Shown: piece after piece, positions 6,841 through 60,124 of the stretch
Layout: the number at the start of each line of letters is the position of its first letter
How positions within the stretch are numbered: the first letter of the stretch is position 1
Origin: Patescibacteria group bacterium
GTDB lineage: Bacteria > Patescibacteriota > Patescibacteriia > Patescibacteriales > JBAZCA01
Assembly: GCA_041661405.1 (NCBI GenBank)
Contig: JBAZUL010000004.1
Location: 15,309-79,308 of the forward strand
Direction of reading: 5' to 3'
Length of the DNA stretch: 64,000 nt
The notes under the pieces: generated by a model
Database searches by the model: none
Seen by the model: the letters and a program-made list of their open reading frames with translations, nothing else
Told to the model about the DNA's origin: nothing
Made by a program: the position numbers and the translations under genes

Positions 6841-6897
6841 CACTGACCTGCCTGCCGGTAGGCAGGTTATCACTGAAGACACTGATTTCACTGATTC
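6841..6897. repeat. Word-plus-palindrome module (CACTGA words around core ACCTGCCTGCCGGTAGGCAGGTT)
   Basis: The 23-mer core at 6846-6868 is identical to 59329-59351. CACTGA words occur at 6841, 6871, 6881 and 6891. Confidence 0.85.
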
Positions 6898-8550: not shown

Positions 8551-9514
8551 AGTAAACAAAATAAAAGAAGCAATAATCGCCGTTACTTATCGGTGCAATT
8601 CGCGATGCCGGATGTGTAATATCTGGCAAAGTAAAGAATGGAATGAAATTTCCCCGGAATTGCTCGCGAATTTGCCGAAAAATATTAAAGACGTGAATCT
8701 AACCGGCGGGGAGCCATTTTTGTATTCTGATCTTCCAGGAGCGGTTCGCGCTATTTCCGGCCGCCTGCCAAAGGCGAGGATTATTATTTCCACTAACGGA
8801 TTCTTAACCGGCCGGATTACCGAGGCGATGAAAAAAATTATTAAGATTAAGCCCGATATCGGCGCAGCAGTCTCTCTTGACGGCATTGGCCGGGCTCATG
8901 ACGAAATCCGGGGAATTCCTGGAGGATTTGAAATGGCGTTGACCACCATAAAGGAATTAAAAAAAATCGGGGTTAAACATTTAAAAATCGGATTTACTAT
9001 CGGCGATTATAATTATAAAGAACTGCCGAAAGTGTACGCGCTTTCCAAAGAACTGGGAACCGAATTTACTATCGCTTTGGTTCATTCAAGTGAAAGCTAT
9101 TTTCAAAAAGAAAACGCAACCCATAAAAAGAATGAAATCAGGGAAATACTAGAATGGCTGAAGCATGAAGAACTGAGAAGCTGGTACCCAAAGCGCTGGG
9201 CTCGGGCGTATTTTACTCACGGGTTAATTGAGTTTTTGGATTATGAAAAAAGAATCTTGCCCGATTATTCCGGCCAGCTGAATATTTTCATTGATCCGGC
9301 GGGAAAAATTTTTCCTTGCGATGTTTCCGGCGAAGATTTGGGAAGCCTGGCTGATAATCCCTTAAAATGGCGGTCCATCGGCGTCTGCACGGCCGGAGAA
9401 AAGAGCTGGATGATCTGCACGGCCCGGCAGTCTATGAAAAAACACTGGGTTAAGGCCGGGAGTTGGATAATTTTTAATAAATTCAGGAGTTTAACGGGCG
9501 TGAATCCGGTTTAA
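8537..9514 (+). CDS. Radical SAM protein (unknown substrate) in glycan cluster
   Basis: CNSRCRMC is a CX3CX2C motif near the N-terminus, with TGGEPF nearby and additional C-terminal cysteines. The start overlaps the upstream gene by 14 nt. Confidence 0.75.
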   Translation: MTNNKVNKIKEAIIAVTYRCNSRCRMCNIWQSKEWNEISPELLANLPKNIKDVNLTGGEPFLYSDLPGAVRAISGRLPKARIIISTNGFLTGRITEAMKKIIKIKPDIGAAVSLDGIGRAHDEIRGIPGGFEMALTTIKELKKIGVKHLKIGFTIGDYNYKELPKVYALSKELGTEFTIALVHSSESYFQKENATHKKNEIREILEWLKHEELRSWYPKRWARAYFTHGLIEFLDYEKRILPDYSGQLNIFIDPAGKIFPCDVSGEDLGSLADNPLKWRSIGVCTAGEKSWMICTARQSMKKHWVKAGSWIIFNKFRSLTGVNPV

Positions 9515-14560: not shown

Positions 14561-14764
14561 ATGTATAATTGGTCAGTTAATACAACTGAATTAAAAAAAG
14601 ACAAGAAAAAATATGCTGTTTGGCGCTTGGAGCAAATGGTTAATTTTGGTTTGGGCGGAAAGAAAATCAACCGGGAAGAAATAAAAAAATATTGGAAGAT
14701 ACTTAAAATGGACCATAATAAAAAGCGGTATTTAAAGATGATTTTATGGCCCAAACAATCCTGA
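14561..14764 (+). CDS. Small conserved-looking protein upstream of and overlapping the AbiEii-type gene (candidate antitoxin partner)
   Basis: 67 codons. It overlaps the downstream start by 19 nt. Composition is basic and Trp-rich (WRLEQMVNFGLGGKKI). It lacks the length expected of a canonical AbiEi. Confidence 0.45.
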   Translation: MYNWSVNTTELKKDKKKYAVWRLEQMVNFGLGGKKINREEIKKYWKILKMDHNKKRYLKMILWPKQS

Positions 14765-15405
14765 GCGCTAATCAAGTTAAAGTTTTGGAGGCAATCAGCA
14801 AAGACGCGGAAATTTGCCGAATTTTTTATTTGACCGGCGGAACGGCTTTGGCGGAGTATTATCTGCAACATCGCTTATCCGAAGACCTGGATTTTTTTTC
14901 GGAAAAAGAATTCGATATTATGGCGATAAATGTTTTTTTTGCGAAGAATAGAAAAGCATTGGGAATAAAAAAGATTGATTTTCAAAAAAGCTTTAACCGC
15001 AATTTGATTTTTCTGCATTTAAAAGATGAGATAATTAAAACTGAGTTTACCTATTTTCCTTTTCCGAGGATTGAAAAAAAAGCTAAGATGAATAAGCTGT
15101 TTGTGGACAGCCTCGGAGATATTGCTGTGAATAAATTGTTTACCATATATCAAAAACCGCGTTCCCGGGATTTTATTGATTTATATTTGATAATAAAGAA
15201 AACCGGCTGGAAGATGAATGACTTGATTAAAAAAACAAAAATTAAGTTTGACTGGCATATTGATTATTTGCAATTAGGCAGCCAATTTATATTGGCTAAA
15301 GAAGTTAAAGATTATCCGCGGATGATCTTTAAACTTGAAAATAAAAAGTGGCAAAATTTTTTTATTAATGAAGCTAAAGTTTTCAGCGGAAAGATTATTG
15401 ATTAG
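14746..15405 (+). CDS. Nucleotidyltransferase, AbiEii/AbiGii toxin family (DUF1814-like)
   Basis: FYLTGGTALAEYYLQHRLSEDLDFF matches the family's N-terminal NTase motif (GG...DLDF). 219 aa. Confidence 0.7.
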   Translation: MAQTILSANQVKVLEAISKDAEICRIFYLTGGTALAEYYLQHRLSEDLDFFSEKEFDIMAINVFFAKNRKALGIKKIDFQKSFNRNLIFLHLKDEIIKTEFTYFPFPRIEKKAKMNKLFVDSLGDIAVNKLFTIYQKPRSRDFIDLYLIIKKTGWKMNDLIKKTKIKFDWHIDYLQLGSQFILAKEVKDYPRMIFKLENKKWQNFFINEAKVFSGKIID

Positions 15406-15550: not shown

Positions 15551-16102
15551 ATGATCCTCCGTATTAATACAATAAAAAACAATTCCACCGAAATTGAAAT
15601 CGGATTGCGCGACAAGGCGGGGAAGTGGATTGTAAAAAAATATGTTAAGGCGGACCGCAAACAGGCGGAGAAGCTCCTGCCCTTGATTGAGAAGGTTGTG
15701 GCTGGCGCAGGCGGAAAGAAGGGCAAGACGGATCTAAAACAGAAGTTTAAAGTTAAAAGTATCCCGTCTCAATCTCGGCGAGCCGAGGCGGAAAAGTTAA
15801 AAGTTTTTGATTTTATTGAATCCATTGAAGTCGTGAATCAGGGCGGGACATTCACCTCTCTGCGCATCGGCGTAGCGACCGCGAACGCGCTGGGGTATGC
15901 GCTAAATGTTCCAGTTGTTGGAGTTAGTGAATTTGAAAAAGTGGGTATAAAGTCCAGGCCGGATGATGCGCATTGTGAAAAGTTCAAAGTTACCTTGCCT
16001 GCCGACAGGCAGGAAAGTCCAAAGTCCAAAGTTAATTTTGATATCGTCGCGCCGGAATACGACAAAGAACCGAATATTACGCTCAAAGTTCATAACCCGT
16101 AA
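15551..16102 (+). CDS. tsaB: TsaB-like (t6A biosynthesis, YeaZ family) mini-protein carrying two repeat-derived inserts
   Basis: NQGGTFTSLRIGVATANALGYALNVPVVGV matches the TsaB GPGSFTGLRIG...P..GV core. The N-terminus MILRINT resembles the family start. Confidence 0.55.
   Translation: MILRINTIKNNSTEIEIGLRDKAGKWIVKKYVKADRKQAEKLLPLIEKVVAGAGGKKGKTDLKQKFKVKSIPSQSRRAEAEKLKVFDFIESIEVVNQGGTFTSLRIGVATANALGYALNVPVVGVSEFEKVGIKSRPDDAHCEKFKVTLPADRQESPKSKVNFDIVAPEYDKEPNITLKVHNP
15737..15808 (+). repeat. In-frame repeat module A inside tsaB-like CDS
   Basis: The palindromic core ATCCCGTCTCAATCTCGGCGAGCCGAGGCGGA (15761-15792) is flanked by a perfect 12-nt direct repeat AAAGTTAAAAGT (15749-15760 and 15793-15804). 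The core recurs at 21719-21754. Confidence 0.85.
15977..16034 (+). repeat. In-frame repeat module B inside tsaB-like CDS
   Basis: The core TGCCTGCCGACAGGCA (about 15996-16013) is a variant of the 6846/59329 core. It is flanked by AAAGTTCAAAGTT / AAAGTCCAAAGTCCAAAGTT words, and the direct repeat CAAAGTTA occurs at 15985 and 16027. Confidence 0.8.
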
Positions 16103-16869: not shown

Positions 16870-17868
16870 ATGGAATATAATCACATACCGGTAATGCTCA
16901 ACGAGGCTTTGGAATATCTAAACCCGAAGCCCGGCGGTTACTATATTGACTGCACTTTGGGAGGAGGAGGATATACCCGGGCGATAGCTGAACGAATCGG
17001 TGAAGCGGGAAAAGTATTAGCCATTGATGCCGATGAGCTGGCGATAGAAAATTCAAAGTTAAAAGTTCAAAGTTTAAAGTTAGAGAATATTATTTTATCC
17101 CATGCGAATTTCAGGAATTTATCAACAATTATCAAGGAAAATTTCCCTGAGCCAGGCGTTAAGTTTGACGGCGTTGTATTTGATCTTGGTCTATCAAGCG
17201 CTCAGCTCTCGCGTGAAACCGGAGGTTTTTCTTTTAAAATGGCTGAAGCTGGATTAGACATGGCTTTTGGAATGCCGAATGGCGGATGCCGAATGGCGGA
17301 TGATGGAAGCCGGAGGCCGGAAAACGGTTGCCGAAGCACGGAAGAAATTGTTAATTCGTGGCCGAAAGATGATCTGGCTGGGATATTTATGGAATTCGGC
17401 GAAGAAAGGTTTGCCTGGCGGATTGCCGAAAAGATTGCCGAAAAAAGGAAAAAGAAAAAAATAAAAACCGTCGGTGAGCTGGTTGAGATAATAAACATGG
17501 CGGTGCCGGCCTTTTACAAGAGAGGAAAAATTCATCCGGCGACGAAAGTTTTTCAGGCGTTAAGAATTGCCACTAATGACGAACTCGGGGCTTTAAGCGA
17601 AGTCCTGCCGCGGGCGGCGGATTCCTTAAAAGAAGGAGGCAGGCTGGTTATTGTTTCTTACCACAGTCTTGAGGACCGGATAGTAAAAAAGTTTTTTAAA
17701 GATAACTCGCTGAAAAACGTAAAACAATCAAAATACGGCGAAAAAGAGGATAGCAGAAAAGCCGATTTAAAAATTTTAACGAAAAAAGTCATTATCCCCT
17801 CCTACGAAGAAATAAAAAATAATCCGCGGTCGCGAAGCGCGAAGCTAAGAGCGGCGGAGAAATTATAA
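16870..17868 (+). CDS. rsmH: 16S rRNA (cytosine1402-N4)-methyltransferase RsmH, with low-complexity inserts
   Basis: HIPVMLNEALEYL, DCTLGGGGYT, FDLGLSSAQL, VSYHSLEDRIVK and NPRSRSAKLR motifs are all present. Confidence 0.9.
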   Translation: MEYNHIPVMLNEALEYLNPKPGGYYIDCTLGGGGYTRAIAERIGEAGKVLAIDADELAIENSKLKVQSLKLENIILSHANFRNLSTIIKENFPEPGVKFDGVVFDLGLSSAQLSRETGGFSFKMAEAGLDMAFGMPNGGCRMADDGSRRPENGCRSTEEIVNSWPKDDLAGIFMEFGEERFAWRIAEKIAEKRKKKKIKTVGELVEIINMAVPAFYKRGKIHPATKVFQALRIATNDELGALSEVLPRAADSLKEGGRLVIVSYHSLEDRIVKKFFKDNSLKNVKQSKYGEKEDSRKADLKILTKKVIIPSYEEIKNNPRSRSAKLRAAEKL

Positions 17869-21718: not shown

Positions 21719-21754
21719 ATCCCCGTCTCGCTCTCGGCGAGCCGAGGCGGAAAA
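21719..21754 (+). repeat. Intergenic copy of tsaB module-A palindromic core
   Basis: ATCCCCGTCTCGCTCTCGGCGAGCCGAGGCGGAAAA compared with 15761-15796 shows 2 substitutions and 1 indel. Its 3' end (GAGGCGG) supplies the SD for mnmA. Confidence 0.85.
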
Positions 21755-25420: not shown

Positions 25421-25506
25421 TGATTAGTTAATTAGGAAATTAGTTAATTAGTTAATTAGGAAATTTATCTATTCCCAAATTAACCGATTAACTAATCAAC
25501 CAATCC
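25421..25506 (+). repeat. TTAGTTAATTAGG word hairpin directly after the rpmJ stop
   Basis: GATTAGTTAATTAGGAAATTAGTTAATTAGTTAATTAGG opposes AATTAACCGATTAACTAATCAACC. Same word family as 28163 and 43991. Confidence 0.8.
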
Positions 25507-25899
25507 ATGGCATTAAGAATAGCGGGGGTTACGCTCCCTAACGAAAAAAGAATAGAAATCGCTTTGACCTATATTTTTGGCATTGGGAAAAAAAAATCCA
25601 ATGATATTTTAACGGCGGCCAAAGTAAATCCTGACACGAGGGTTAAAGATATAAACGAAGAAGACGCCAATCGGGTTCGTGAAATTGTTGAAAAGAATAA
25701 CAAGGTTGAAGGGGAGTTAAAACGGGACATCATAAGCAATATTAAAAGGCTTAAAGAAATAGGCAGTTACCGGGGTAGCCGCCATATCAAAGGACTGCCC
25801 TCAAGAGGGCAACACACCAAAACCAATACCCGGACCGTCCGCGGCAACATAAGAAAAACCATGGGATCGGGAAGAAAGCCGGCCGGACAAAAAACATAA
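25507..25899 (+). CDS. rpsM: Ribosomal protein S13
   Basis: [11 protein letters not shown]...[20 protein letters not shown]. Confidence 0.95.
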
Positions 25900-26018: not shown

Positions 26019-26609
26019 ATGACTGAAGAAAAAAATATAAAAACCGAAGATAAAAACGCAGGAGAAGCGGCTGAAGAGTTAACTTCCGCGGTCGCTAATG
26101 ATTCCGCGCCTTTGTCTGATCCGGAAGAAGAAAAAGAAAGCCGCCGGCCCATGAGCGGCCTTGTTGAACTGCCTGACAGCGTGAAAGAGAAGCTGGAAAA
26201 AAGAAAAGAGAAGGGGCCGAGCCGGTCAAAGAAAAAGAAAGGCAAGAAAAAAGACCGGAGGGTTCCGGCGGGCAAAGCTTTTATCAAATCCAGCTATAAC
26301 AATACGATTGTAACTTTGACCGATTTGGGAGGTAATGTAATTTCCTGGGCTTCGGCTGGAATTGCCGGATTCAAGGGACCGAAAAAAGCCACCCCTTACG
26401 CCGCGCAGATTATTACCCGCATTGCCTGCACGAAAGCGAAAGAGGATTACGGTTTGAAAGAAGTGAGCGTGTTTGTCCGGGGAGTGGGCATCGGCCGCGA
26501 CGCCGCGGTTCGGGCTTTGAACGCCAACGGACTGTTAATAACTTCCATTAAGGATATTACGCCCATCCCGCATAACGGATGCAGGCCGAAGAAGCCAAGA
26601 AGAGTGTAA
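26019..26609 (+). CDS. rpsK: Ribosomal protein S11 with about 65-aa acidic/basic N-terminal extension
   Basis: The conserved core starts at [30 protein letters not shown]. An internal ATG at 26151 is an alternative start. Confidence 0.85.
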
Positions 26610-26615
26610 AAAATG

Positions 26616-26682
26616 AGTTAAAAGTTCAAAGTGTAATGTTAAAAGTTGCGATTCCTTAACTTTCAACTTTGAACTTTTAACT
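26616..26682 (+). repeat. Perfect 17-bp AAAGTTCAAAGT word hairpin between rpsK and rpsD
   Basis: AGTTAAAAGTTCAAAGT (26616-26632) is the exact reverse complement of ACTTTGAACTTTTAACT (26666-26682). The same words occur in rsmH and tsaB. Confidence 0.9.
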
Positions 26683-26696
26683 TGAGCGAAGCGATT

Positions 26697-27346: not shown

Positions 27347-28162
27347 ATGGAAACCATAGCTTTACCCCAGAACGTGGAATTTAACAAAGGCGCCGGACCC
27401 CATGAATCTCTGGCGTCCATTTATCCCTGCTACCCAGGCTACGGAATTACTCTCGGCAATTCGCTTCGCCGGGTGCTTCTTTCCAGTCTGCCGGGAGCGG
27501 CTGTAATCGGTGTAAAAATAAAAGGAGCGGACCATGAATTCATGTCGCTTCCGCACGTCAAAGAAGATGTTCTGGAAATAATTTTGAATTTAAAAAAATT
27601 GAGACTGAAAGTTTTTTCCGACGAACCAATAATACTTAAACTTAGCGCTCATGGCGAGAAAAAAGTAAAAGCCGGGGATATCGCCAAATCCAGCCAGATT
27701 GAGATAATTAACCCGGAGCTTGTTATCGCCGGAATCACCGACATGGCCGGCAATCTGGAGATGGAAATTCACGTCGCCCAGGGCAAAGGCTATGAGCCGG
27801 TTGAAGCCAGGGAAAAGAAAAATTCTGAAATCGGCTATATTGAGATAGATTCCATTTTTACGCCGGTGCTCAAGGTCGGAATTGACATTGAAAACATCCG
27901 CGTCGGCAAGATGACTAACTGGGAAAAGCTTAAACTGGACATAAAAACCGACGGGACCATGGAACCCGAAGAAGCTTTTGAAAAAGCGGCTAAAATATTG
28001 ATTGAACAGTTTAAAGCTTTAGTCGGAAAAGAAAAAGCGACGGACGAAGCCGGGGAAGCGAAAGAAGTTTTGGAAAGCGAGGCCGGCGACGGCGACGCGT
28101 CCGAGGCTGAAGAAGGAGTTAAAGAATCCGGAAAGAAGCGGGGAAGGCCGAAGAAAGGATAA
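27347..28162 (+). CDS. rpoA: RNA polymerase alpha subunit, N-terminal domain only, with acidic tail and terminal AT-hook-like KKRGRPKKG
   Basis: Alpha-NTD motifs are present (GYGITLGNSLRRVLLSSLPGAAV). The protein is 271 aa. No helix-hairpin-helix alpha-CTD sequence follows about residue 225. Confidence 0.85.
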   Translation: METIALPQNVEFNKGAGPHESLASIYPCYPGYGITLGNSLRRVLLSSLPGAAVIGVKIKGADHEFMSLPHVKEDVLEIILNLKKLRLKVFSDEPIILKLSAHGEKKVKAGDIAKSSQIEIINPELVIAGITDMAGNLEMEIHVAQGKGYEPVEAREKKNSEIGYIEIDSIFTPVLKVGIDIENIRVGKMTNWEKLKLDIKTDGTMEPEEAFEKAAKILIEQFKALVGKEKATDEAGEAKEVLESEAGDGDASEAEEGVKESGKKRGRPKKG

Positions 28163-28218
28163 TTAGTTGATTAGTTAATTGGTTAATTAGGATTGCGTTA
28201 ATAACTAATTAACCAAGG
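28163..28218 (+). repeat. TTAGTTGATTAG word hairpin directly after the rpoA stop
   Basis: TTAGTTGATTAGTTAATTGGTTAATTAGGA differs at 1 of 30 nt from 43991-44020. The right arm is CTAATTAACCAA. Confidence 0.85.
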
Positions 28219-42926: not shown

Positions 42927-43994
42927 ATGCCTATAAAAATAAAACCAATCACTGACGAAAAATCCTGGCAAGATTTTGAGAAGATTCGCGCGCCGCATAC
43001 TTTTCTGCAAACCTGGGAATGGGGAGCCGCGCAGGAGCTTCTTGGCAATAAAATTTTTCGGCTGGGGATTTACGGCAACGGCAAAATTCAGGGAACCGCT
43101 TTTGCTTATAAAATCAGCGCCCGGCGGGGATCGTTTTTGTTCTGTCCGCACGGCCCGTCAATTGACTGGAAATGCTCTGAATTTCCGCAAAATACGAAAA
43201 AAACAAAATACGAAAATTTTGATAATTTTCGGGCGCTGGCCGGTTATTTGCGCGAACTGGGAAAAAGCGAGAGAGTGGGATTCGTTCGGATTAGTTCGCT
43301 GGCTCCGGATAATGATGACATGAAAAAACTTTTTCGGGATTCCGGTTTTATTTCGGCGCCGGTTCATATGATGCATCCGGAAAACGCCTGGATCCTTGAT
43401 ATTGACCGGCCGGAAGAAGAAATAATCGGCGCCATGAAAAAAAGAACCCGCTATTCAATCCGCAAAGCGGAAAAAGACGGCATAAAAATTACGACATCAG
43501 CCAATCCGGCCGACGTGAGGCTATTTTATGAAATGTATCTTGAAACCGCCAGACGGCAGAAATTCGTCCCGTTTTCGGAGAGCTATATCCGGCGCGAATT
43601 TGAAATATTCCGGAAAAATAATAAAGCCCTGATGTTTTTTGCTTATTTTAAAGGGAAACTCATTTCCGCGGCTGTAATTATTTTTTCTTCTAAAATGGCT
43701 TTTTATCATCACGGCGCTTCAATCCGGTCGGATAATTCCGGCCTCACGGCCTCGGAATTACTGCAATGGAACGTCATCCTTGAAGCCCGGCACCGGGGAC
43801 TCGCTAGCTATAATTTTTGGGGCATCGCGCCGGAGAATTGCCCGAAACATCCTTGGCACGGTTTGACAACTTTTAAAAAAGGTTTTGGAGGACATCCGGA
43901 AAATTATCTGCACGCCCAAGACCTTGTAATTTCGCCGAAATATTGGTTAAATTACATAGTGGAAACGGTAAGACGGTGGAAGAGGGGATATTAG
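42927..43994 (+). CDS. FemAB/FemX-family aminoacyl-tRNA-dependent peptidyl/aminoacyl transferase
   Basis: FLQTWEWGAAQE, MKKRTRYSIRKAEKDGI, YHHGAS, LQWNVILEARHRG..YNFWGI and TTFKKGFGG motifs. The ATG at 42927 is preferred over the GTG at 42888. Confidence 0.8.
   Translation: MPIKIKPITDEKSWQDFEKIRAPHTFLQTWEWGAAQELLGNKIFRLGIYGNGKIQGTAFAYKISARRGSFLFCPHGPSIDWKCSEFPQNTKKTKYENFDNFRALAGYLRELGKSERVGFVRISSLAPDNDDMKKLFRDSGFISAPVHMMHPENAWILDIDRPEEEIIGAMKKRTRYSIRKAEKDGIKITTSANPADVRLFYEMYLETARRQKFVPFSESYIRREFEIFRKNNKALMFFAYFKGKLISAAVIIFSSKMAFYHHGASIRSDNSGLTASELLQWNVILEARHRGLASYNFWGIAPENCPKHPWHGLTTFKKGFGGHPENYLHAQDLVISPKYWLNYIVETVRRWKRGY
43188..43218 (+). repeat. 16-nt-period AAAATACGAAAA word repeat translated inside femX-like CDS
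   Basis: CAAAATACGAAAAAAACAAAATACGAAAATT differs at 1 of 31 nt from the intergenic 51560-51590. Here it encodes QNTKKTKYENF. Confidence 0.9.
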
Positions 43995-44074
43995 TTGATT
44001 AGTTGATTGGTTAATTAGGAAAAATATATTAACCAACCAACTAATTAACTAATCAACCAATTAACCAATTAACT
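43991..44074 (+). repeat. TTAGTTGATTAG word hairpin spanning the femX-like stop to the next ATG
   Basis: The left arm TTAGTTGATTAGTTGATTGGTTAATTAGG contains the TAG stop (43992-43994). The right arm is TTAACCAACCAACTAATTAACTAATCAACC. Confidence 0.85.
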
Positions 44075-45289
44075 ATGTTTGAGCGAACAAAAGATCTAAA
44101 ACTCTCGGTAATCAAGCAGATGGAATTAAAGGCGGCGAAAATCCCCGACGTGATATCACTCGCTCAGGGCGTGCCGAGCTTTGACACTCCGCAGTTCATA
44201 AAAAGGCGGGTGGAAAAAGAATTGAAAAATCAGGTAATTTCAAAATATTCGCTCTCGCCCGGGATGATGGAACTGCGGGAGCTTTTTGAGGCGCATCTGG
44301 CTAAGGAAAACATGCATTACGACTGGGAAACGGAGATTCTTGTTACGGTCGGAGCGATTGAAGCGCTAACCGCGACTATCCTGGCGCTTACCATGCCCGG
44401 CGATGAAATTCTCGTTCCTGAGCCGGCTTATACTTCCTATCGCGAAGTGATTACCCTTGCCGGATGCAATCCGGTTTACGCGCCGTTAAACGAAGAAAAA
44501 GACTGGGGGCTTGAGATGGCTGAAATTGAAAATGCCATCACCCCGAAAACCAAAGCCATAATCTATTCCAACCCTTCCAATCCGACCGGGACGATTTTCT
44601 CCAAATCTCAACTTTTAGAACTCGTGGAATTCGTAAAAAAACACGATATTTTCCTTATTACCGACGAGCTTTACAAGGATTTTGTTTTTGATCCTTCCTA
44701 CCTTGAAAACGGCCGGCTCTTTTCGGTCGCCGAGATTCCTGAGATCCGGGAAAAGGTAATCCGAATTTTTAGCCTCTCAAAATTATTCGCCATGACTGGC
44801 TGGCGGGTCGGCTTTCTCCATAGCGACGCCAAAAACGTCAAGGAGATTTTAAAAGTCCATGACTGCCTTGTTACTTGCGCGCCGGTAATTTCCCAGGTCG
44901 CGGCTATGGGCGCACTTGAGGGTTGCGAGGAAAATATTACTAATTTTAACGTTGAATTCCAGAAACGTCGGGATCTGATCTGCGCGCGACTTGATAAGCT
45001 CGCCAAATATTTCAGTTACGCCAAGCCTCAGGGAGCCTATTATATTTTCCCGAAAATTAAACCTGAGGCTTTTCCAAAAATGAAAAAGGCCGTAAATTCA
45101 AAAGGCGCGGAAGTGATTGATTCATGGGAATTTTGCGTTGATCTCCTGGAAAAAGCCAAAGTCGGCACTGTTCCCGGGTTTGCTTTTGGGCCATCAGGCG
45201 AAGGGCATTTCCGAATGAATTTTGCCAAGAGCGAGGAAAACATCAATGACGCTTTTGACCGGATAGAAAAATACTGTGAGAATCAATAA
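44075..45289 (+). CDS. Class I/II PLP aminotransferase (aspartate/aromatic-type)
   Basis: LAQGVPSFDTP, NPSNPTG, and SLSKLFAMTGWRVGF (SxSK lysine). Confidence 0.8.
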   Translation: MFERTKDLKLSVIKQMELKAAKIPDVISLAQGVPSFDTPQFIKRRVEKELKNQVISKYSLSPGMMELRELFEAHLAKENMHYDWETEILVTVGAIEALTATILALTMPGDEILVPEPAYTSYREVITLAGCNPVYAPLNEEKDWGLEMAEIENAITPKTKAIIYSNPSNPTGTIFSKSQLLELVEFVKKHDIFLITDELYKDFVFDPSYLENGRLFSVAEIPEIREKVIRIFSLSKLFAMTGWRVGFLHSDAKNVKEILKVHDCLVTCAPVISQVAAMGALEGCEENITNFNVEFQKRRDLICARLDKLAKYFSYAKPQGAYYIFPKIKPEAFPKMKKAVNSKGAEVIDSWEFCVDLLEKAKVGTVPGFAFGPSGEGHFRMNFAKSEENINDAFDRIEKYCENQ

Positions 45290-54302: not shown

Positions 54303-54388
54303 TAAGTTATAAAGTTATAAAGTAAAAAGTTTAAAGTATTATATTTATACTTTTAGCCTTATACTTTATAACTTTAAACTTTATAACT
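54303..54388. repeat. GTTATAAAG / CTTTATAAC word hairpin in the clpB leader
   Basis: AGTTATAAAGTTATAAAGTAAAAAGTTTAAAGTAT opposes ATACTTTATAACTTTAAACTTTATAACT. Confidence 0.8.
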
Positions 54389-59276: not shown

Positions 59277-59286
59277 ATTTAGAAAA

Positions 59287-59375
59287 ATGAATTATGATTT
59301 ATGAATTATACAAATTTTTAAACTCATTACCTGCCTGCCGGTAGGCAGGTTCATAATTCGCAATTCATTATTCAA
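59287..59375. repeat. ATGAATTAT word hairpin around core ACCTGCCTGCCGGTAGGCAGGTT
   Basis: The core at 59329-59351 is identical to 6846-6868. The left words have a 14-nt period (ATGAATTATGATTT ATGAATTAT). The right words are complementary (CATAATTCGCAATTCAT). Confidence 0.85.
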
Positions 59376-59448: not shown

Positions 59449-59808
59449 CTACTTTTCGGATTTTTTTTCTGTTGGTTTAACAGCGGTTTTGGCTGTTTTG
59501 ACGGCTGCGGTTTTTCCAGCCGATACTTTGGCTGAGGCCGGTTTTTTAGCGGCCGATCTCGCGGCGCGCTTTACTCTTTTTCCTTTTTTTCCGGCTGAGG
59601 CGGTTCCTTTGGCCGCTACCCGGGCGCGGAATTTTTCTACCCGGCGGGCGGTATCAACGATTTTCTGCTTGCCGGTATAAAAAGGATGGCAGGCCGAACA
59701 AACCTCGGTTTTAATTTCAGAGGCGGTTGAGCCGGTCGTAAAAGTGTTGCCGCAAGAACAGGAGACTTTTACGTTGTCGTTGTATTTCGGATGGATTTTG
59801 TCTTTCAT
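59449..59808 (-). CDS. rpmE: Ribosomal protein L31 with about 50-aa Ala/Lys-rich C-terminal tail
   Basis: [28 protein letters not shown]...[13 protein letters not shown], followed by an [30 protein letters not shown]... tail. Confidence 0.9.
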
Positions 59809-60063
59809 AATTCTGCTAATTTACGAATCAGCTACGAATTTACGAATCCCGAATTCCCGGGATGTGTTTATATTTATAGCGATCGATGATTTTTTTGTTT
59901 ATTAAGATAAACAAAATTTAGCATATATTCCGGGAAAATGCAAGAATAAGCCGTAAAAACAATACACCCGTTTTTCGGGTGTATTGTTTGGAATAGAATT
60001 TTTTGGTGTTTTTACCTTTTTGCCCTTAAGTAATCTATCACTCTAACAATATCCTCCTACTTC

Positions 60064-60124
60064 GTCCCGCCTCTCACGAGAGGCGGGACTGCGCAGAACA
60101 ACCTGCCTGTCGGCTGTGGCAGGG
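60064..60124 (-). terminator. Two GC-rich hairpins downstream of the giant surface-protein gene
   Basis: GTCCCGCCTCTC AC GAGAGGCGGGAC (60064-60089) and ACCTGCCTGTCGGCTGTGGCAGGG (60101-60124). Neither has a clear U-run. Confidence 0.4.

Follow-up and report, generated by a model that had tools for sequence, protein, structure and literature searches.

Two GC-rich hairpin repeats in the half-size tsaB gene of a Patescibacteria genome and their relatives in other lineages

How does a gene that encodes a minimal protein come to carry, in frame, DNA that also occurs as hairpins between other genes? The question is raised by a tsaB-like gene on a 64,000-nucleotide (nt) stretch of DNA from a Patescibacteria group bacterium (NCBI GenBank assembly GCA_041661405.1, contig JBAZUL010000004.1, positions 15,309 to 79,308 of the forward strand). 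This stretch was analyzed at its full length and is called the window below; all window positions count from its first letter. The gene contains two GC-rich segments, modules A and B. We consider it likely that both modules are copies of short, non-coding, GC-rich hairpin repeats, i.e., of selfish DNA resembling repetitive extragenic palindromic (REP) sequences and the Rickettsia palindromic elements (RPEs), and that these repeats are mobile and tolerate translation.

Two additions to a half-size TsaB

The product of the host gene (Table 1) matched the Pfam family PF00814 (TsaD) with 35 bits, the cut-off being 24.8 bits. Its match to the TsaB equivalog TIGR03725 (52.9 bits) remained below the cut-off of 69.3 bits and covered only positions 11 to 120 of the 212 profile positions, i.e., the N-terminal half, which rules out a full-length, two-domain TsaB. 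We built an AlphaFold model from 26 homologues; in a Foldseek search, the top PDB matches of this model were all YeaZ/TsaB structures (E = 3e-7, 125 aligned columns). By its sequence and its predicted fold, the product is a TsaB N-terminal (ASKHA) domain. Among 5.8 billion proteins, 117 relatives were found, nearly all of them from Patescibacteria and mostly 117 to 131 amino acids (aa) long; the half-size TsaB is the form of the whole Patescibacteria family. The window protein is some 60 residues longer than this family, and the excess is confined to two alignment gaps, in agreement with the first-pass annotation of the window, which had described an intact TsaB core with two extra segments.

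Site A (residues ~57 to 85) is located between helix alpha-1 (QAEKLLPLIEKVV) and the strand preceding GGTFTSLRIG, and site B (residues ~127 to 162) follows the VPVVG strand, the last strand of the core. The length of both sites is hypervariable in the alignment of the TsaB family. In the AlphaFold model, the predicted local distance difference test score was ~88 for the core, below 50 for residues 58 to 72, and 47 to 55 for residues 130 to 160, which are modeled as low-confidence coil. According to the alignment, the mini-TsaB core is conserved, and both segments were added to it in a lineage-specific manner. The identical 183-aa protein is encoded on four independent assemblies (ENA, Logan, JGI, and NCBI), which argues against a misassembly.

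The core of module A had been described as a 32-nt palindrome. It is a real unit, but it measures 30 nt (15763 to 15792) and falls short of a true palindrome: it is an imperfect hairpin with an 8-bp outer stem (CCGTCTCG/CGAGGCGG), in which one pair is G-T, and an inner stem that is small and variable. The exact 12-nt direct repeat AAAGTTAAAAGT reported around it is present (15749 to 15760 and 15793 to 15804). Equally correct was the report of a second, intergenic copy near mnmA; this copy (21722 to 21751) matches the first with 83% over 47 nt, reaches to within 4 nt of the mnmA ATG (21755), and overlaps the Shine-Dalgarno region of that gene. To judge from its sequence context, the GAGG in the 3' arm of this hairpin, 7 nt before the ATG, can serve as the mnmA Shine-Dalgarno sequence.

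Module B contains TGCCTGCCGACAGGCA (15996 to 16011), a variant of the 20-mer CCTGCCTGCCGGTAGGCAGG that was found between genes at 6847 to 6866 and 59330 to 59349, where the first-pass annotation had placed it (near 6846 and 59329). The coding copy in tsaB differs from the 20-mer by 2 mismatches and by an extra T in the 5' arm, which is shared with the tsaB copy of the closest relative described below and brings the unit from 20 to 21 nt; such an extra base is what a frame-preserving survivor would need. The in-frame translations quoted for the two modules were correct. Also as reported, the flank word of module B, AAAGTTNAAAGT, recurs in rsmH (17055 to 17080) and in the hairpin between rpsK and rpsD, the genes of ribosomal proteins S11 and S4 (26621 to 26677). 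With a further locus at 54326 to 54382 and the tsaB copies, it occurs 11 times in the window, against 0.1 occurrences expected.

The exact recurrence of both families in the window is far above chance, since 0.02 copies are expected for the 30-mer of family A and 0.00 for the 20-mer of family B. The flanks of these copies differ. Family B copies are bordered by CACTGA words at 6847, by ATGAATT words at 59330, and by AAAGTT words in tsaB; the family A copy at 21722 has no word flanks at all. Tandem word arrays in the window are enriched at periods 7 and 8 only (seven arrays each), with none at periods 4 to 6 or 9 to 12 and none in shuffled sequences. Most of these arrays lie in the spacers between genes, in the ribosomal-protein operon and elsewhere, and pair with an inverted copy to give long AT-rich hairpins.

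Table 1. Positions of the host gene, hairpin elements, and word arrays in the window
Feature	Position	Strand	Basis
Mini-TsaB (YeaZ N-terminal-domain-only) gene, 183 aa, host of both inserts	15551..16102	+	Pfam, TIGR03725, fold, family length
Left part of site A heptamer array, AAGTTTA AAGTTAA AAGTAT	15743..15762	+	Read from sequence; similar array at the L001 empty site
Family A 30-nt GC-rich hairpin, CCCGTCTC-N11-GCCGAGGCGGA, reads (I)PSQSRRAEAE	15763..15792	+	Exact pattern match; clean 30-nt gap in L001
Right part of site A heptamer array, A AAGTTAA AAGTTTT	15793..15807	+	In phase with the left part when the 30-mer is removed
Left heptamer units of site B, AAAGTTC AAAGTTA	15979..15992	+	Read from sequence
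Family B hairpin, 21 nt (CCTTGCCTGCCGACAGGCAGG), within TLPADRQE	15993..16013	+	20-nt palindrome family plus one T; multiple of 3
Right heptamer units of site B, AAAGTCC AAAGTCC AAAGTTA	16014..16034	+	Read from sequence
Second family A 30-mer, murE-mnmA spacer	21722..21751	+	Pattern match; neighbors identified
Family B 20-nt palindrome, intergenic, upstream of Wzy_C-like gene	6847..6866		Sequence match
Family B 20-nt palindrome between rpmE and prfA (both minus strand), tip of long ATGAATT-word hairpin	59330..59349		Fold of 59280-59375, z = -5.5
In-frame AAAGTTN heptamer array in rsmH (KLKVQSLKL), without hairpin	17047..17084	+	Sequence
Hairpin of AAAGTTN array and inverted copy, between rpsK and rpsD	26616..26685	+	Fold z = -5.0

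Filled and empty sites in related genomes

The tsaB gene and its flanks were retrieved from six related metagenomic genomes and aligned or dissected. This comparison, which the first-pass annotation had proposed, revealed presence/absence polymorphism at both sites. The closest relative, L001, whose TsaB is 66% identical, has a clean 30-nt gap at site A and a five-unit array (AAGTATG AAGTAAG AAGTAAG AAGTTAG AAATTTT). Removal of the 30-mer from the window sequence also leaves five units in phase (AAGTTTA AAGTTAA AAGTATA AAGTTAA AAGTTTT), the element being located before the last base of the third unit. The same relationship was observed with another hairpin in a pair of sister genomes: L004 contains at site A an unrelated 36-nt hairpin (CCTGCCCGCAATGCTACGCATAGCGTTGCAGGCGGG, fold -29.8 kcal/mol), L005 contains the array only (AATTATG AATTAAG AATTAAG AATTACG), and the two differ here by exactly 36 nt, with the same number of heptamer units and the phase kept. 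In L176, a 42-nt perfect palindrome is present at site A and a 38-nt palindrome at site B. At site B, L001 carries a family B hairpin (CCTTGCCTGCCGGCAGGCAGG), in which CCGGCAGG replaces CCGACAGG of the window; L004 has an AAGTCTN array only, and L005 has a GC-rich insert, a degenerate A-like hairpin that aligns loosely to family A. The more distant relatives L174 and L175 have Lys-rich inserts at these sites, with no obvious hairpin. The same sites are thus occupied independently by different hairpins; as read from these alignments, a few related genomes record no fewer than five or six entries of unrelated hairpins into the two TsaB loops.

The first-pass annotation had taken the 12-nt repeat around module A for a target-site duplication. 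The comparison with L001 contradicts this: a 12-nt duplication and a 32-nt core would together have added 44 nt, a length not divisible by 3, and the observed difference is 30 nt, with the array already in place at the empty site. The repeat consists of two stretches of a pre-existing, in-phase array of AAGTTNA heptamers, and the insertion therefore took place without target-site duplication.

Two further positions show the same exchange of elements. One rsmH position is occupied by a GC-rich insert in the window (~17270 to 17340) and by a family A 30-mer in L001, and it is empty in L005. The L001 copy is read as PVSPDARRGG, i.e., in a frame other than that giving PSQSRRAEAE in the window tsaB. 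Since one element family is read in different open frames in different genes, the propagating unit is DNA and not a peptide. The murE-mnmA spacer is likewise polymorphic. It contains an A hairpin in the window and no hairpin in L005; in L001 (12180 to 12250), it contains the B-like hairpin ACCTGCCGGCAGGCGGGT between direct AATGATT words, followed by a second hairpin, CCTGAATAAGTTCAGG. The rsmH insert of the window (MPNGGCRMADDGSRRPENGCRS) is in frame and holds a 14-nt tandem duplication (GCCGAATGGCGGAT, two copies).

Families A and B beyond the window

To determine the occurrence of family A, a collection with one genome per species (596 Gb) was scanned with the pattern CCCGTCTC-N11-GCCGAGGCGGA, which retrieved at least 119 stretches. 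Among the matches listed, on which the family A counts below are based, 110 distinct copies were found in loci of at most 55% GC, against fewer than ~5 predicted from composition for the whole collection; the dozen matches in loci of 60 to 72% GC are probably due to chance. The 11 inner bases that the pattern leaves free have a consensus of their own (GCC-NNN-GGCT, alternatively CTCGC-N5-GCGAG), which shows that the family is real. The labels of the matches include several Patescibacteria classes (Saccharibacteria, Berkelbacteria, Doudnabacteria, and others), Omnitrophota, Planctomycetota, Bdellovibrionota, Ignavibacteria/Bacteroidota, uncultured Gammaproteobacteria, and one Nanoarchaeia metagenome-assembled genome (MAG). 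In lineages other than that of the window, several copies per MAG were observed. The flanks are lineage specific, and there is almost no information beyond the 30-mer. In copies labeled Omnitrophota, the unit is nested in a larger palindrome that has the family B arms CCTGCCTGCC/GGCAGGCAGG on its outside; a third flank class comprises CCCCCTT..AAAGG and GGGGTTGGGGGGATT.

Of the 110 copies, 58 could be placed without ambiguity in open frames of 150 codons or more. Together they use all six frames, with 38 copies in sense and 20 in antisense orientation (p = 0.025). Another 47 copies are intergenic, and 80% of random 30-mers are genic; family A is depleted from coding sequence but not excluded from it. 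Pfam matches confirmed the hosts as genuine housekeeping genes, which encode a class-I aminoacyl-tRNA synthetase, DnaX, TsaD, MurG, a MurD-like ligase, a GT4 glycosyltransferase, and PGK. Both the family A unit and the family B core are free of stop codons in all six frames. Tandem copies of the A 30-mer were also seen; they abut directly in three loci (L051, L058, and L038), and in a fourth, L055, three copies spaced by the 7-nt word AAATTCA are found in one 701-codon open reading frame (ORF). Such tandem copies would encode 10-residue protein repeats.

Family B recurs in these same loci of other phyla, including a copy identical to the window 20-mer in a locus labeled Nanoarchaeia. It was found in 47 stretches of IMG/VR viral contigs, in which no match to family A was obtained. 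The recurrence that the first-pass annotation had proposed to search for is thus seen for both cores, which are not private to this genome and belong to families spread over many phyla, with family B also in phage contigs. In a viral-class contig (L155, 2239 to 2330), the B 20-mer makes up the variable arm of a tRNA-Met of 92 nt that ARAGORN recognized; a second such contig (L127, ~8590 to 8660) shows the same tRNA context, and in a third (L166, ~490 to 560) the 20-mer follows a D-arm-like GGTAGCTCAGTTGGTA, with no tRNA called.

The association with word arrays was assessed by the presence of a direct 6-mer common to both flanks, a test that replaced a strict periodicity test of the joined flanks, whose threshold of 0.70 was too stringent. 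A shared 6-mer was found for 31% of A copies, 25% of B copies, and 9.5% of controls, and its spacings cluster at 7, 14, 21, and 28 nt. In two phage contigs of 60 to 68% GC (L126 and L154), the B palindrome interrupts a heptamer array in phase. Arrays and hairpins are nevertheless separable, because arrays occur without hairpins and hairpins without arrays. The sharing of 13-mers between the window and foreign loci was too noisy to reveal further families.

One of the relatives, L176, has an IS200-type Y1_Tnp gene (PF01797, 147 aa; 440 to 1050) 1 kb upstream of its tsaB. This gene is flanked on both sides by a GC hairpin of its own (CCCCGTCCGCTTGCGGCGGGG, CCCC(G/A)TCCGCTTGCGG(C/T)GGGG), and two more GC hairpins are located upstream. 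A total of 119 relatives of this enzyme were found in metagenomes. A tblastn search with it retrieved nothing from the window or the hairpin loci, except for a weak 34-aa match in L106.

Some other features of the window deserve mention. A gene of the AbiEii toxin family (14746 to 15405), preceded by a small overlapping ORF (14561 to 14764), is located directly upstream of tsaB; it adjoins tsaB also in L004, L172, and L173, and not in L001 or L005. Related intergenic hairpins made of period-8 ATTAGTTA-type arrays and their inverted copies are found at 25423 to 25505, 28158 to 28215, and 43988 to 44076. They fill short spacers between co-directional genes and reach the downstream ATG, two of them preceding the ORFs at 25507 and 28247, and form a separate dispersed family of AT-rich repeats. 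A strong intergenic hairpin with an AT/GC stem of the 17-bp class (AAACAATACACCCG..CGGGTGTATTGTTT) is present at 59957 to 59989, and a 12-bp GC stem (GTCCCGCCTCTC..GAGAGGCGGGAC) at 60064 to 60114 is followed by CCTGCCTGTCGGC, which resembles a half site of family B. Ribosomal protein S11 has an N-terminal extension of ~84 aa before its Pfam domain (26019 to 26270), and L31 extends ~55 aa past its Pfam domain (59452 to 59620).

Proposed mobility, rival explanations, and known systems

Mobility of the hairpins would account for these patterns. New copies would arise at intergenic and genic places in the genome, and insertion would be precise, free of target duplication, and often directed into pre-existing A-rich tandem heptamer arrays. 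A genic copy would persist only if (i) its length is a multiple of three, (ii) it is free of stop codons, and (iii) it lies in a protein region that tolerates extra residues; the two disordered surface loops of mini-TsaB would be such permissive sites. Transcription and translation of the inserts would yield the peptides IPSQSRRAEAE and LPADRQE between Lys-rich stretches that the arrays encode, and the inserts would presumably be selectively neutral.

Several points weigh against this account. Presence and absence were compared between orthologues of which even the closest is only 66% identical, and the copy number in the 64-kb window is modest (two A and three B copies). Translation of the inserts is predicted from the open frame, the length in multiples of three, and the stop-free sequence. 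The invariance of the family A ends is partly imposed by the search pattern, and the phylum labels are those given to the MAGs by their depositors. Neither a transposase nor a Y1_Tnp gene was found in the 64-kb window; an all-versus-all clustering of 3,092 ORFs, covering 166 hairpin loci, recovered only phage structural genes and housekeeping families and no recurrent candidate enzyme; and at 80 metagenome loci with relatives of the L176 Y1_Tnp, no A or B hairpins were present at the ends. For the window and the loci covered, these last three results speak against a REP/REPIN system with a cognate Y1 REP-associated tyrosine transposase (RAYT) flanked by the same repeats.

Our leading guess for the mobilizer, offered tentatively, is an HUH/Y1 enzyme of the IS200/RAYT type that recognizes hairpins in single-stranded DNA and acts in trans, because duplication-free insertion, an imperfect hairpin, and a strand bias would fit such an enzyme. 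Y1 HUH enzymes of the IS200/IS605-RAYT group give rise to these three features. A more far-reaching proposal, which is rather doubtful, is that A and B are previously undescribed, ultra-short invasive elements with a very broad host range (many bacterial phyla, DPANN archaea, and phages), near-identical cores, seamless insertion into heptamer arrays, protein genes, and tRNA genes, and no dedicated transposase next to them. If this were true, the elements would have to depend either on a trans-acting enzyme that is widely shared or on a host-independent replication or repair mechanism that targets slipped repeat DNA, and the period-7 and period-8 arrays could be part or product of that mechanism.

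The main rival explanation, to which we assign a low probability, dispenses with a dedicated mobile element. The hairpins would be copied by recombination, gene conversion, or template switching, seeded by slipped, break-prone arrays, so that the arrays rather than a transposase explain why the same sites are targeted repeatedly. The in-phase position of hairpins inside arrays without target duplication, the existence of arrays at empty sites, and the lack of any transposase association all agree with such copying, for which the AAAGTTN arrays at five or more window loci could offer microhomology. It is at odds with the occurrence of the same core between unrelated flanks, as seen above for the B copies and the A copy at 21722, and with the sharp ends of the units, which are identical across phyla in wholly different flanks and are not predicted by homology-driven copying. 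Still less probable in our view is a role of the hairpins as cis-acting RNA or DNA signals kept by selection, such as processing or stability sites, attenuators, antisense terminators, or protein-binding sites, with the coding copies acting as regulators embedded in mRNA. The G-U pair favors folding of the CCCGTCTC strand, which is the sense strand in 38 of the 58 genic copies and in all three copies in or near the window; the intergenic copies are located in short spacers of co-directional genes, one of them overlapping the mnmA Shine-Dalgarno region; and a conserved binding partner would be in keeping with the sequence conservation seen in different phyla. However, the other 20 genic copies are antisense, orthologous sites are freely without a hairpin or occupied by unrelated ones, and the fold z-scores of the tsaB modules in their context are weak (-1.3 to -1.5). 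No Rfam family matched the elements at gathering or relaxed thresholds in the window and in four loci from other phyla, and a scan for sense or antisense intrinsic terminators flagged neither module on either strand. An RNA-level function is therefore not supported.

There is next to no likelihood that the segments are an ordinary hypervariable, low-complexity linker of local origin that resembles the repeats by coincidence, or an assembly artifact. The variable length of both sites across the family and the Lys-rich inserts without obvious hairpin in L174 and L175 would suit a linker, but the recurrence of the 30-mer and 20-mer far above chance in the window and in public collections and the identity of the gene in four independent assemblies have essentially refuted this reading already.

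Spread of mobile hairpins, the reading that we prefer, would have several consequences. Patescibacteria genomes are tiny and streamlined, yet essential genes carry junk-like hairpin DNA that is predicted to be translated (tsaB and rsmH here; genes for an aminoacyl-tRNA synthetase, dnaX, tsaD, murG, and pgk in other lineages), which bears on the question of how proteins of reduced genomes gain lineage-specific loops and extensions. In annotation, the inserts inflate protein lengths and give rise to spurious "novel" motifs such as PAGRQ, PSR..AEAE, and PVSP..RGG. To explain a 20- to 30-nt unit that is shared in conserved form by several phyla and also found in phage contigs and tRNA genes, a mobilization mechanism not yet known has to be invoked. 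On the practical side, a fixed site that is filled with a hairpin in some strains and empty in others makes a convenient strain-level marker. In the literature searched, whose coverage was incomplete, we found nothing specific on these core sequences or on palindromic or REP elements in the candidate phyla radiation (Patescibacteria).

How do these elements compare with known ones? The first-pass annotation had suggested a miniature palindromic element family that can land in coding sequence; the idea of a mobile palindrome was broadly right, and the details that pointed to target-site duplication and to MITEs (transposable elements of the miniature inverted-repeat type) were wrong. MITEs have terminal inverted repeats of 15 to 30 bp, are 70 to 300 bp long, and generate target-site duplications. 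The elements described here share with them that they are small, non-autonomous, dispersed, and possible within genes. Membership is ruled out by units of 20 to 42 nt that consist of a hairpin only, with no terminal inverted repeats beyond it, no conserved flanks, and no target-site duplication. A more distant parallel is provided by the GC clusters of yeast mitochondria, which are occasionally found in frame in a protein gene (var1). These clusters, short palindromes rich in GC, spread through an AT-rich genome between AT-rich repeat flanks, by a mobilizing mechanism that is unknown (PMC4478555). The likeness is one of behavior and not of homology; the clusters are organellar and eukaryotic, and their sequences are unrelated.

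REPs are closer. They are GC-rich, imperfect palindromes of 20 to 40 bp that are scattered for the most part between co-directional genes, with an occasional copy within an ORF (Di Nocera et al., 2013; PMC3733652), and they occur at the same site in orthologous genes, including different REPs at one site, and without target duplication (PMC3733652). Families A and B are dispersed, GC-rich, imperfect palindromes of just this size. REPs reach tens to hundreds of copies per genome; the counts obtained here are two A and three B copies in the 64-kb window and several copies per MAG in other lineages. Some REPs, those with a CGTC tag, have no known dedicated transposase; in these, an unpaired terminal tag is followed by an 8- to 9-bp stem that starts with A-T pairs and by a CCA tail (PMC3733652). 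Family A has CGTC at positions 3 to 6, but it is not a member of this class: its CGTC is paired within the outer stem, and it lacks the A-T pairs and the CCA tail. Nor is family B a GTAG-tagged REP, as its GTAG is located in the loop and the 3' arm, is present only in some copies, and is not an unpaired terminal tag. Head-to-head dimers (REPINs) of A or B and a flanking RAYT were not seen. Furthermore, each REP family is largely confined to one species or genus, whereas the A and B cores are common to several phyla.

In-frame insertion has been described for RPEs and, less often, for the REPs of other bacteria (PMC3733652). As far as the summary of Ogata et al. (2000) in PMC3733652 goes, RPEs are palindromic DNA located in frame in functional, often essential genes and also in non-coding regions; they contain no stop codons, and their peptides are thought to lie on the protein surface. 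The elements of this study are likewise stop-free, intergenic as well as genic, located in predicted surface loops, and in frame in conserved genes whose orthologues lack them (tsaB and rsmH; elsewhere the aminoacyl-tRNA synthetase, DnaX, TsaD, MurG, MurD-like, and PGK genes). They differ from the RPE-1 type, which measures ~100 to 150 bp and is restricted to Rickettsia, in that (i) their units are only 20 to 42 nt long, (ii) their near-identical cores are found in many phyla, and (iii) they are often embedded in tandem heptamer arrays. There is a moderate chance that their mobilization mechanism is something new. New in comparison with both REPs and RPEs are the very small unit, the fact that ultra-reduced genomes carry it within essential genes, cores that are nearly identical in different phyla and in phage contigs, and the link to period-7 arrays.

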